From positions 32,001 to 96,000 of the forward strand of contig JAVBPX010000001.1 of the NCBI GenBank assembly GCA_031549365.1: DNA of 64,000 bases, read 5' to 3'. The position numbers and the translations under genes are program-made. The stretch comes from Alphaproteobacteria bacterium. Its GTDB lineage: Bacteria > Pseudomonadota > Alphaproteobacteria > Rs-D84. Below the pieces are notes generated by a model. It ran no database searches and was not told the origin of the DNA. It saw nothing but the letters and a program-made list of their open reading frames with translations. Position 1 is the first letter of the stretch. Every line of letters starts with the position of its first letter. Below are positions 37,886-42,482 of the stretch, in pieces.

Positions 37886-39658
37886 CTATCCCTTCTTGCG
37901 AATTTGGATGTGCAATTCACGCAATTGTTGTTCGGAAACTTCAACTGGAGCGCCCAACATTAAATCTTGGCCACGTTGGTTGGTTGGAAATAAAACAACT
38001 TCACGTAAATTTGGTTCACGACATGCCATGCAAACCAAACGATCAATTCCAAATGCACATCCGGCATGTTGCGGCGCACCATATTGGAACGCAGTCCACA
38101 TACCGCCGAATTTTTTGCGAACAACTTCGGCATCGTATCCGGCAATTTCGAATGCTTTGACCATAATTTCTGGTTTATAATTACGCAATCCGCCCGAACA
38201 AATTTCCGCACCGTTTAAAACCATGTCATATTGGAATGCTTTTATTTCCAGTGGGTTTTGGTTTAACAATGCATCCAATCCGCCCTGGGGCATTGAAAAT
38301 GGATTGTGCGAAAATGCGACCTTGCCTGTTTCTTCGTCCAATTCATAGAATGGAAAATCAACAATCCAGCAAAATTTATAATCGTTTTCATCAATCAATT
38401 TTAAATCTTCGCCCAATCTGATTCGGATTTTACCAGCTGCCTTGGCGGCAATGTCTTTTTTCTCGCATACGAAAAATACAGCATCGCCCTTGGCAACTCC
38501 GGTTGTTTTCATAATTGATTCAATTTCTGATTCCGATAATGATTTTGCGATTGGTCCTTTGACCTCGTCCGCGAATGCCAAATATCCCAATCCACGCAAT
38601 CCGATTTCTTTGGCAAATTCGCCCATTTTATCGAACCACGAACGCGCCATACCTCCCGCAGTTGGTGCTGGGATTGCACGAACAACCGAGCCTTCTTTCA
38701 CTGCGTCTGCAAATAATGAAAATGCGGATTTTGCAAACACATCTGATACATCCGAAATGATAATTGGGTTACGCAAATCTGGTTTATCAATACCGTATTT
38801 TTCAATTGCTTCCATATATGGAATGCGTGGAATGTTTGAATCAACCGTACATTTGCCATCTGTGAATATTTTCATCATTTCTGGGATTAATGCTTCACCA
38901 ACTGCAAAAACATCTTCTTGTTCCACAAAAGACATTTCCATATCCAATTGATAAAATTCCAATAAACGATCCGCACGCAAATCTTCGTCACGAAAACAAG
39001 GCGCAATTTGGAAATAACGATCAAATCCAGAAATTTGAATCAATTGTTTATATTGTTGAGGCGCCTGAGGCAAAGCATAAAACATCCCATGATGTAAACG
39101 ACTTGGTACCAAGAAATCGCGAGCACCTTCGGGACTGGATGTTGTTAAAATCGGGGTTTGAAATTCTTGGAATCCCAAATCCCACATTTTATCACGCATC
39201 CATTTAATCATGTGATTGCGTTTTGTAATATTTTTTTGTAGTTTTTCACGACGTAAATCAATGTATCGATATTGAATACGTAAATCTTCTGGAAATTTTT
39301 CGTCGCCAGCAACCTGAATTGGCAAAACCTCTGCCATTGATTGAACGCGGTATTCGCTGACGGAAACTTCAATCTCACCAGTTTTTAATTTTGGATTTAT
39401 AACGGACACATCACGCGCAACAACGTTACCAATAACTGTAATCACAGATTCGTTATGAATTTTTTCCAAATCGCGTAATGCTTCATTTGATAAATCAACA
39501 ACACACTGAGTCATTCCATAATGGTCGCGTAAATCAATAAACAATAATGATCCGTGATCCCGTTTTTTATGCACCCAACCGGATAACGTTACAACCGTTC
39601 CGACCTGCGCCTTGGTCAATTCTCCACAAGTATGGGTTCTGAACTGATTTGCTCTCAT
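37886..39658 (-). CDS. aspS: Aspartyl-tRNA synthetase, probably non-discriminating (Asp/Asn)
   Basis: RTHTCGEL, RDHG (His at the non-discriminating determinant position), PEGARDF, LPQAPQQYKQL, FRDEDLRADR, FGIDRL; start ATG 39658 with AAGGTG SD. Confidence 0.97.
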   Translation of the reverse strand: MRANQFRTHTCGELTKAQVGTVVTLSGWVHKKRDHGSLLFIDLRDHYGMTQCVVDLSNEALRDLEKIHNESVITVIGNVVARDVSVINPKLKTGEIEVSVSEYRVQSMAEVLPIQVAGDEKFPEDLRIQYRYIDLRREKLQKNITKRNHMIKWMRDKMWDLGFQEFQTPILTTSSPEGARDFLVPSRLHHGMFYALPQAPQQYKQLIQISGFDRYFQIAPCFRDEDLRADRLLEFYQLDMEMSFVEQEDVFAVGEALIPEMMKIFTDGKCTVDSNIPRIPYMEAIEKYGIDKPDLRNPIIISDVSDVFAKSAFSLFADAVKEGSVVRAIPAPTAGGMARSWFDKMGEFAKEIGLRGLGYLAFADEVKGPIAKSLSESEIESIMKTTGVAKGDAVFFVCEKKDIAAKAAGKIRIRLGEDLKLIDENDYKFCWIVDFPFYELDEETGKVAFSHNPFSMPQGGLDALLNQNPLEIKAFQYDMVLNGAEICSGGLRNYKPEIMVKAFEIAGYDAEVVRKKFGGMWTAFQYGAPQHAGCAFGIDRLVCMACREPNLREVVLFPTNQRGQDLMLGAPVEVSEQQLRELHIQIRKKG

Positions 39659-39683
39659 ATTTTTCACCTTTTTGCTTTTGATA

Positions 39684-39729
39684 TTTGTTAAAACAAGAAT
39701 AATTATAAATTATTTCCTGTTTTAACAAA
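39684..39729. repeat. AT-rich hairpin element, copy B, inside the aspS leader
   Basis: TTTGTTAAAACA-AG-AATAATT-ATA-AATTATT-TCC-TGTTTTAACAAA. Confidence 0.65.
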
Positions 39730-39793
39730 AACAGAAACAATCACAATGCTTTCAAATTTTGATTTTATGCACCGAATCATTTCTGATTGTTAA

Positions 39794-39945
39794 ATCCTCT
39801 GCAAGGACGTCTTTCAAACGCGGTGCCACCTTGCTTCGTGCTGGAATACCAACACCTTGATCAAACGTATCGTGTTCAAACGGCGGGTTCTAATCGGATT
39901 AACCTTTCTTCCCGCATGCTCACCGGTGTTTGCCGGGTCAATGCA
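39794..39945 (-). ncRNA. T-box riboswitch, ultra-short Stem I (actinobacterial ileS-type) architecture, Asn specifier
   Basis: Minus-strand RNA: Stem I UGC-AUU-GA-CCCGG-CA[AAC]A-CCGG-UGA-GCA; Stem II GCGGG-AAGAA...AGAA-CCCGC; IIA/B pseudoknot CGU-UUGAAC-ACG / GUUUGA; Stem III GUGUUGG-UAUU-CCAGCAC; antiterminator GCAAGG-UGGCACC-GCGUUU-GAA-AGACGU-CCUUGC; upstream of an aminoacyl-tRNA synthetase. Confidence 0.9.
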
Positions 39946-39954
39946 ACTGATCCT

Positions 39955-39983
39955 ATTCTGTTACCAATATTAAAAAAAATCAA
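39955..39983 (-). promoter_or_regulatory. Putative promoter of the T-box-aspS transcript
   Basis: TTGATT-17 nt-CAGAAT; the implied start at about 39948 is just 5' of Stem I. Confidence 0.55.
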
Positions 39984-40002
39984 GAAAAATATTTTTATTC
40001 CA

Positions 40003-40033
40003 CAAATAAACCCCGGTTTCCCAGGGTTATTTG
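40003..40033 (-). terminator. Terminator after gyrB
   Basis: Minus strand CCCTGG-GAAA-CCGGGG-TTTATTT. Confidence 0.75.
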
Positions 40034-40040
40034 ACTTGAA

Positions 40041-42482
<2,442 letters not shown>

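Follow-up and report, generated by a model that had tools for sequence, protein, structure and literature searches.

T-boxes are textbook regulators of Gram-positive bacteria. In clostridia, the element associated with the gene for aspartyl-tRNA synthetase (AspRS) is reportedly a classical transcriptional T-box with a long stem I, in an operon with an amidotransferase. An asparagine (Asn)-specific T-box on the aspS-gatCAB pathway of Clostridium acetobutylicum is cited, under Saad et al. 2012 and 2013, in the reference list of PMC4206432. Translational T-boxes with an intermediate or "ultrashort" stem I were described for actinobacterial ileS by Sherwood, Grundy and Henkin in 2015, according to the review PMC7583486. 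A survey of 2008 covered 125 Proteobacteria and found T-boxes in two, in each case in front of leuA (PMC2494555), and by the account in PMC7778990 the database TBDB ran its class II model only in Actinobacteria and on class I hits with a truncated stem I. Here, we report on the leader of aspS in a 64,000-nucleotide (nt) stretch of DNA from a bacterium assigned to the Alphaproteobacteria (contig JAVBPX010000001.1, positions 32,001-96,000; hereafter the window, the coordinates of which are used below). This leader combines a short scaffold with a predicted Asn specificity on aspS, in a lineage labelled Alphaproteobacteria/Rickettsiales. An incomplete search of the literature yielded no description of T-boxes in this lineage or of pairing between a T-box bulge and a ribosome-binding site.

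The anatomy of the leader, its conservation and covariation in relatives, its fit to the tRNAs of the genome, the gene content, and a natural alternation between Asn and aspartate (Asp) codons make it quite probable that the leader is a working Asn-sensing T-box, most likely with translational output. From these observations we infer tRNA binding, sensing of the charge, and the expression platform.

Results

A T-box with a short stem I precedes aspS

The leader is located on the minus strand at 39950-39800, between the terminator-like hairpin behind gyrB and aspS. It is a real T-box of the short-stem-I type. In a permissive local scan, the Rfam T-box model RF00230 matched 39800-39950 over the full model with 51.9 bits and an E value of 1.4e-10; in a search of the whole 911-kb genome (completeness 97.6%), the E value of the leader was 6e-11. 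R1, our own covariance model, matched the leader with 49.8 bits (E = 1.6e-7), and this was its sole match in the genome. Within its family, f1, the leader is the top scorer of RF00230. Two weak RF00230 matches on contig C13 (E = 0.03 and 0.93) were dropped as chance matches; R1 misses both, and one overlaps open reading frames (ORFs). In the aspS leader, 2 nt stand in place of 72 model positions of distal stem I. Because these positions are missing, the score stays under the gathering threshold, and the element is therefore missed by standard annotation: the default Rfam scan of the window listed no match.

As aligned to RF00230, stem I is a hairpin only (39918-39944), made up of a 2-bp base helix, a K-turn-like UGA/GA, a 4-bp stem (39936-39933 with 39926-39923), and a six-base loop (39932-39927). 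The loop holds the Asn codon AAC (39928-39930), followed by the purine A39927. The distal platform of stem I that stacks on the tRNA elbow is absent, as in translational class II elements, and the short stem I occurs together with stem II and IIA/B, again as in class II T-boxes. Stem II (39883-39915) contains purine-rich motifs of the S-turn type, which recur in those relatives that have stem II. Downstream follow the stem IIA hairpin (39882-39871) with the next strand, a candidate IIA/B pseudoknot (39857-39882 as a whole), and stem III (39838-39855), which is also present in the centroid fold. The antisequestrator/antiterminator (39801-39834) consists of helix A1 (39834-39829 with 39806-39801), helix A2, and the T-box motif with its 7-nt bulge (39828-39822, UGGN...) between them. 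The first four bases of the bulge read UGGC (39825-39828) and would pair with the G73-C-C-A end of tRNA-Asn.

Conservation in relatives was analyzed by searching 41 related genomes with RF00230 and R1. RF00230 matches were obtained in 25 of them, none over the gathering score, and R1 matches in 26. Adding five leaders (from four named public contigs and a genome of another family) to the 29 distinct Asp/Asn-type leaders of the related genomes gave a set of 34. The T-box motif does not vary among the 24 leaders of the alignment labelled A1. In the leader alignment, 96.5% of the cells are paired, and double changes occur in 8 of 13 pairs; none of 500 shuffles reached its score, and slid controls paired in 35-49% of the cells. 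Each of the three stem pairs of stem I is changed on both sides in 9-13 relatives. For helices A1 and A2, pairing in relatives amounts to 99-100%, and 3 of their pairs show double changes. The call of a T-box, made earlier from the letters of this DNA, is thus borne out by the RF00230 E value of 1.4e-10 and by conservation with covariation.

Specifier and bulge fit tRNA-Asn

The sequence-only reading had placed AAC, followed by A, at 39930-39928 and UGGC at 39828-39825 and had assigned both to tRNA-Asn. Both motifs are found exactly there, and the tRNA genes agree with the assignment. In this genome, tRNA-Asn(GUU) and tRNA-Asp(GUC) both carry G73 and end in G-CCA, whereas tRNA-Ile(GAU) carries A73 and ends in A-CCA. 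Four overlapping triplets can be read in the loop. tRNA-Asn(GUU) has G73, as opposed to A73 in tRNA-Lys(UUU), tRNA-Thr(UGU), and tRNA-Gln(UUG). As AAC is the only triplet with a G73 tRNA, only the Asn reading agrees with UGGC. T-boxes in front of tyrS in relatives provide an internal control; they have UGGU, matching A73 of tRNA-Tyr (the tRNA being read in this genome). The fourth bulge base hence tracks the tRNA discriminator, with C for G73 (Asn/Asp) and U for A73 (Tyr).

The aligned triplet was AAC in 19 and GAC in 15 of the 34 leaders, with nothing else occurring at this position and a purine following it. In GAC leaders, the register shifted by -1 reads UGA, a stop codon. AAC and GAC are the codons of the two tRNAs charged by a non-discriminating AspRS, and both of these tRNAs have G73. 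In the leader studied here, specifier and purine match the regulated gene, an AspRS that must charge tRNA-Asn. Taken together, the Asn specificity and functional context of the leader are well supported.

A lone AspRS must serve both tRNAs

aspS (37886-39658, minus strand, ATG at 39658) encodes a bacterial-type aspartate-tRNA ligase of 590 amino acids, which scored 783 bits with NF001750 (cut-off 443) and is the single AspRS of the genome. asnS is absent from the genome; the best matches of TIGR00457, with 81-88 bits, were two lysS genes and aspS itself. Neither asnA nor asnB was found in the genome. gatC-gatA-gatB are present at C14:127799-131035, on the same contig as aspS and ~56 kb away from it. 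asnS exceeded the cut-off in 1 of the 41 related genomes and gatB in 38. Given a sole AspRS and no asparaginyl-tRNA synthetase or asparagine synthetase found, AspRS must make Asp-tRNA(Asn) for GatCAB; judged by gene content, it must be non-discriminating. The genome check proposed with the sequence-only reading thus came out as that reading had anticipated.

The same reading had relied on the RDHG motif of AspRS. A His in this anticodon-binding loop reportedly marks non-discriminating enzymes. The His is present and aligns with His in the Asp/Asn ligases 4wj3 and 5gro, whereas AspRS of Escherichia coli (1c0a) has Leu. RDHG is, however, kept in all relatives including those with GAC, so that it neither separates the two groups nor explains the difference between AAC and GAC. 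Gly in the next anticodon-binding loop is a second signature of non-discriminating enzymes. The protein has Ser at this position, as compared with Gly in 4wj3 and 5gro and Lys in E. coli, an observation to which we attach little weight.

Asn and Asp codons alternate in front of aspS

An archaeal-type AspRS (NF003483) was found over the cut-off in 6 of the 41 related genomes, and fragments were present in G019 and probably in G010. Leaders of both enzymes were visible in three genomes, G002, G017, and G019. In all three, the bacterial aspS carries GAC and the archaeal-type gene AAC. A second enzyme over the cut-off was absent from all 12 genomes with AAC on the bacterial aspS. A search for T-boxes within 800 nt upstream of the bacterial aspS of G012 or upstream of the archaeal-type gene of G027 was negative, and the contig of G010 ends there. 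A strict rule by which AAC occurs if and only if the enzyme is alone was considered and is ruled out by G013 and G024, two genomes of 99-100% completeness with a GAC leader and no second enzyme. Comparison of these genomes indicates that either tRNA can govern a lone AspRS.

A quick maximum-likelihood tree of AspRS was calculated from 28 T-box-linked and 6 outgroup sequences. The genome under study pairs with G003 (support 97), and both have AAC. At least 6 changes between AAC and GAC are needed on this tree, the early-branching rows of which have AAC. AAC in this genome thus looks inherited rather than newly retargeted. The sequence-only reading had postulated two coordinated specificity changes by which an isoleucine (Ile) element was retargeted. 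This view did not hold. Asn and Asp leaders both have UGGC, a single base distinguishes AAC from GAC, and the closest homologues, which likewise have UGGC, are leaders of aspS with either AAC or GAC. No T-box on ileS was found with RF00230 or R1 in this genome or among the matches in the 41 relatives. Because UGGC is shared, the switch involves a single base, and no ileS T-box was detected, retargeting from Ile is not supported. In our revised reading, evolution of these leaders would instead have proceeded as a one-base Asn/Asp toggle, a single transition.

The T-box-bearing relatives in public records carry the label Alphaproteobacteria or Rickettsiales. A search of 150 other sampled genomes of the phylum with R1 gave no leader of this kind. 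Of 150 other families of the class, a single one had a T-box according to RF00230, again a leader of aspS with AAC.

Several further features were noted in the related leaders. Most aspS leaders in this bacterial family (for example L021, L023, L026, L030, and L148-L162) are ~95-110 nt long and have no stem II, IIA/B, or stem III. In them, nothing but an A-rich linker of 25-30 nt separates the stem I hairpin (~30 nt) from the antisequestrator, and the 7-nt loops resemble anticodon loops (a pyrimidine, U, three bases, a purine, and one more base). On contig C26 of G017, the bacterial aspS (GAC) and the archaeal-type AspRS gene (AAC) are arranged head to head with their T-boxes ~100 nt apart (L173/L020); another contig of this bin (78% complete, 2% contamination) bears a further bacterial aspS, also with GAC. 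In sister families, UGGU T-boxes lie upstream of an archaeal-type tyrosyl-tRNA synthetase (NF006330, ~391 bits), as seen in L010 (G032), L014 (G033), and L015 (G029). The tyrS leader of G032 has a full-length stem I (90.4 bits) and, by eye, an apparent terminator of the classical kind, complete with U-run; the order hence harbours both long and short classes of T-box. In L019, L025, and L027 (G024, G013, and G014) and also in L032 and L154, a tRNA gene lies in front of the aspS T-box, its end only some tens of bases away; by eye, its anticodon is GGU (Thr) and its discriminator A73. In those genomes there is little room for a separate promoter, and the aspS leader may be co-transcribed with the tRNA.

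The ribosome-binding site appears complementary to the T-box bulge

A terminator overlapping the antisequestrator was not found by the terminator scan or in constrained folds. The ribosome-binding region (39665-39675) comprises GGUG at 39668-39665 and GC at 39675-39674. In the unconstrained fold (-48.5 kcal/mol), 39825-39820 pairs with 39675-39665, and the four GGUG bases are unpaired with probabilities of 0.07-0.12. These probabilities rose to 0.50-0.86 when the antisequestrator was forced and the bulge kept free as a mimic of the tRNA-bound state (-47.3 kcal/mol). A complement search revealed a putative decoy at 39769-39774, six nt complementary to the bulge and the first base of A2. With this decoy paired to the bulge (-43.5 kcal/mol), a spacer strand covers the ribosome-binding site, and the probabilities were 0.16-0.30.

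Most relatives with a short spacer have a ribosome-binding site of unusual form, GGUG followed by two pyrimidines, which is complementary to the bulge. GGTG is found in the ribosome-binding window of 31 of 701 ORFs of the genome; GGTG followed by C or T occurs in only 8 of 701 ORFs as compared with 17 of 33 leaders. In 18 of 29 leaders of relatives, 6 nt or more that are complementary to the bulge precede the start codon; shuffling of each leader produces such a site in 0.5-12.5% of cases. A partition-function model pairs the ribosome-binding core with the bulge in 14 of 33 leaders (probability 0.67 or higher). Six leaders with a long spacer, including the one studied here, have the bulge complement 15-27 nt after the T-box (15-21 nt in the five others) and the true ribosome-binding site 61-134 nt away. 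This arrangement suggests a relay of three strands in long-spacer leaders. In L019, L025, L037, L043, and L150, the bulge complement is followed by a second strand that could pair either with the flank of this complement or with the genuine ribosome-binding site. L150 (G022) has, in this order, the bulge, its complement, the bulge sequence once more, and the ribosome-binding site. A classical sequestrator formed by the 3' strand of A1 with the ribosome-binding region was also considered. It would need a 3-nt bulge in this leader and was ranked below bulge pairing. By eye, it fits the archaeal-type leaders and G028.

According to these models, the T-box bulge probably masks the ribosome-binding site by pairing with it, although the 160-nt spacer makes masking uncertain in this leader. 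The apical loop would present AAC to the GUU anticodon of tRNA-Asn, and UGGC of the bulge would pair with the free G73-CCA end of uncharged tRNA-Asn. Without tRNA, GGUG would be held by CACC(GC) of the bulge or, via the relay, by a spacer strand freed when the decoy takes the bulge. Occupation of the bulge by tRNA would set the ribosome-binding site free, and the output would most likely be translational. Because the lone AspRS must make Asp-tRNA(Asn), a shortage of charged tRNA-Asn would raise AspRS. As a whole, the platform is plausible, being inferred from folding.

Other features of the locus

Upstream of the leader, a terminator-like hairpin (40009-40028, minus strand, from the terminator scan) ends gyrB (40041-42449) and separates it from the leader. 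Two promoter-like hexamers were recognized by eye on the minus strand, -35 at 39978-39983 and, after a distance of 17 nt, -10 at 39955-39960, each matching the consensus in 4 of 6 positions. The same -35-like hexamer precedes T-boxes of relatives. With this pair, the transcript start would fall at ~39948, the 5' edge of the T-box match. A consensus promoter scan, which needs 9 of 12 matches, does not report the pair. Between leader and aspS, minimum free energy and centroid folds contain spacer hairpin 1 (39737-39790), which carries the decoy on its 5' arm and precedes a U-rich run, and folding also yielded spacer hairpin 2 (39685-39728), a terminator-like palindrome of ~20 bp. A metatranscriptome contig from an invertebrate-gut sample matches 39503-39833 without differences and joins the 3' part of the T-box, the spacer, and aspS. 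RNA run X3 gave nothing on the stretch and X2 nothing on 39834-40214; no conclusion is drawn from either run.

Discussion

The following points weigh against an Asn-sensing T-box that controls translation of aspS. The RF00230 score of 51.9 bits is below the Rfam gathering score of 93. The pair counts come from an alignment that had been fitted to the model, and the related genomes are kin, not independent. The start codon follows the conserved T-box motif at a distance of 160 nt, as compared with 49 nt in the sister genome G003; the extra spacer consists of the two hairpins, the first of which is absent from G003. Direct pairing between bulge and ribosome-binding region amounts in this genome to only 4+2 bp across a 5-nt bulge, and the decoy alone is not significant, as a similar site occurs in 12.5% of shuffles of the long leader. 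The folding models ignore pseudoknots and tRNA, and covariation cannot show pairing of the bulge because the bulge never varies. The RNA-library contig has a low depth of 3.8 and could stem from DNA carry-over. Finally, in 7 of 10 genomes with GAC on the bacterial aspS, an archaeal-type enzyme over the cut-off is missing as well (6 of 10 when the unclassified fragment of G010 is taken as archaeal-type). As genomes with GAC and a lone enzyme exist, a lone non-discriminating enzyme does not need AAC.

The alternative that survives best treats the leader as a decoupled relic, i.e. an intact aptamer cut off from the ribosome-binding site by the two-hairpin insertion (39790-39685), with aspS expressed constitutively, perhaps from a promoter in the spacer. 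The 160 nt to the start codon as opposed to 49 nt in G003 and the shortness of the direct complementarity between ribosome-binding site and bulge are in line with this idea, as is hairpin 2, a repeated terminator-like palindrome. A 40-nt copy of it with 92.5% identity and a compensatory stem change resides between convergent genes (C15:16673-16712), a location that makes it look like a terminator-type palindrome; this AT-rich palindrome of ~20 bp is probably a member of a bidirectional terminator family. Its loop contains a perfect -10-like hexamer, but this has no -35 partner, and no minus-strand promoter was found there by the scan. Moreover, all conserved T-box features are intact in a leader with the top RF00230 score of its family, and the bulge complement is kept where short-spacer relatives have their ribosome-binding site. 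Constrained folds still predict opening that depends on tRNA, and the RNA-library contig runs from the 3' part of the T-box into aspS. We consider a relic unlikely.

The spacer hairpins might also act in transcription attenuation, with hairpin 1 and its U-rich tail or hairpin 2 serving as a terminator that the tRNA-bound T-box overrides. The U-rich run after hairpin 1, the close similarity of hairpin 2 to the hairpin between convergent genes, and the classical terminators of tyrS T-boxes in sister families would fit. Yet the 3' strand of the antisequestrator overlaps with neither of them, and both hairpins are present in the free fold as well as in the tRNA-bound mimic, so that no mutually exclusive alternative is predicted. 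The terminator scan reported only the gyrB terminator and a site on the plus strand but none in the leader, sister leaders have no room for a terminator, and the RNA-library contig crosses both hairpins. Attenuation therefore has only a small chance of being the mechanism here. Sensing of tRNA-Asp, or of both tRNAs, despite AAC is very improbable, for although UGGC fits both tRNAs, the enzyme charges both, relatives have GAC on the same gene, and a two-codon Clostridium T-box is cited in reference lists, AAC would form an A-C mismatch with the GUC anticodon at the first codon base, the 6-nt loop fits one codon only, and AAC and GAC are kept apart in the genomes with two enzymes (3 of 3).

A more specific model can tentatively be put forward for this lineage, one that we hold to be less likely than not. 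The ribosome-binding site would be a cis mimic of the tRNA acceptor end that pairs with the bulge (up to 7 bp where it reads GGUGCCA) and is displaced by G73-CCA of uncharged tRNA. Regulation would then be a competition for one helix and not an exchange of antisequestrator and sequestrator. Combined with a specifier hairpin resembling an anticodon loop, this may have allowed riboswitches of ~95-110 nt without a stem I platform or stem II, and long-spacer forms would use the decoy relay.

T-boxes on aspS, on the gene of the archaeal-type AspRS, and on tyrS occur across a whole order with genomes of 0.5-1.1 Mb that is labelled Alphaproteobacteria/Rickettsiales, and all of them escape the Rfam threshold. 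The natural toggle between AAC and GAC on one gene is a ready-made experiment on a regulator that tracks a dual-substrate synthetase, and the clean split of AAC and GAC between two enzymes, when both are present, is likewise a natural experiment. The leaders also offer very small tRNA-sensing modules for engineering.

Side observations were made on lysine-related genes of the genome (G000). Despite its size of 911 kb, it has two full-length class II lysS genes, at C5:19875-21185 and C14:154279-155574 (655 and 596 bits to NF001756). Outside the window, 24 nt upstream of the second lysS, lies a tRNA-like element at C14:155784-155856 on the minus strand (L003:3006-3078, minus strand). It scored 28.6 bits with the Rfam tRNA model (gathering score 29), and ARAGORN assigned a two-base "anticodon" tt. 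The element may be a mimic of tRNA-Lys within the leader of a synthetase gene.

Comparison with known systems

The leader shares the T-box motif, the K-turn at the base of stem I, the codon with its following purine, stem III, and the antiterminator fold with class I elements as represented by RF00230 and TBDB. It differs from them in the 72 missing distal stem-I positions, reflected in 51.9 bits against a gathering score of 93. With the C. acetobutylicum system it has in common that tRNA-Asn would be the effector for the enzyme making Asp-tRNA(Asn), the same physiological logic. In contrast to what is reported for that system, stem I is a mere hairpin here, no regulated terminator is evident, and gatCAB is ~56 kb away. 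Closest in architecture are the actinobacterial ileS T-boxes as portrayed in the review cited above. As in these, stem I lacks the distal elbow platform while stem II and IIA/B are kept, the discriminator (stem III plus antisequestrator with its UGGN bulge) is retained, and the output would be at the ribosome-binding site. The present leader is distinguished from them by AAC instead of an Ile codon, UGGC instead of UGGU, and aspS as the gene, by a host labelled Alphaproteobacteria/Rickettsiales, and by its many relatives without stem II. Compared with the review's account of the ileS elements, moreover, its ribosome-binding site is apparently complementary to the bulge rather than to the 3' strand of the antisequestrator.

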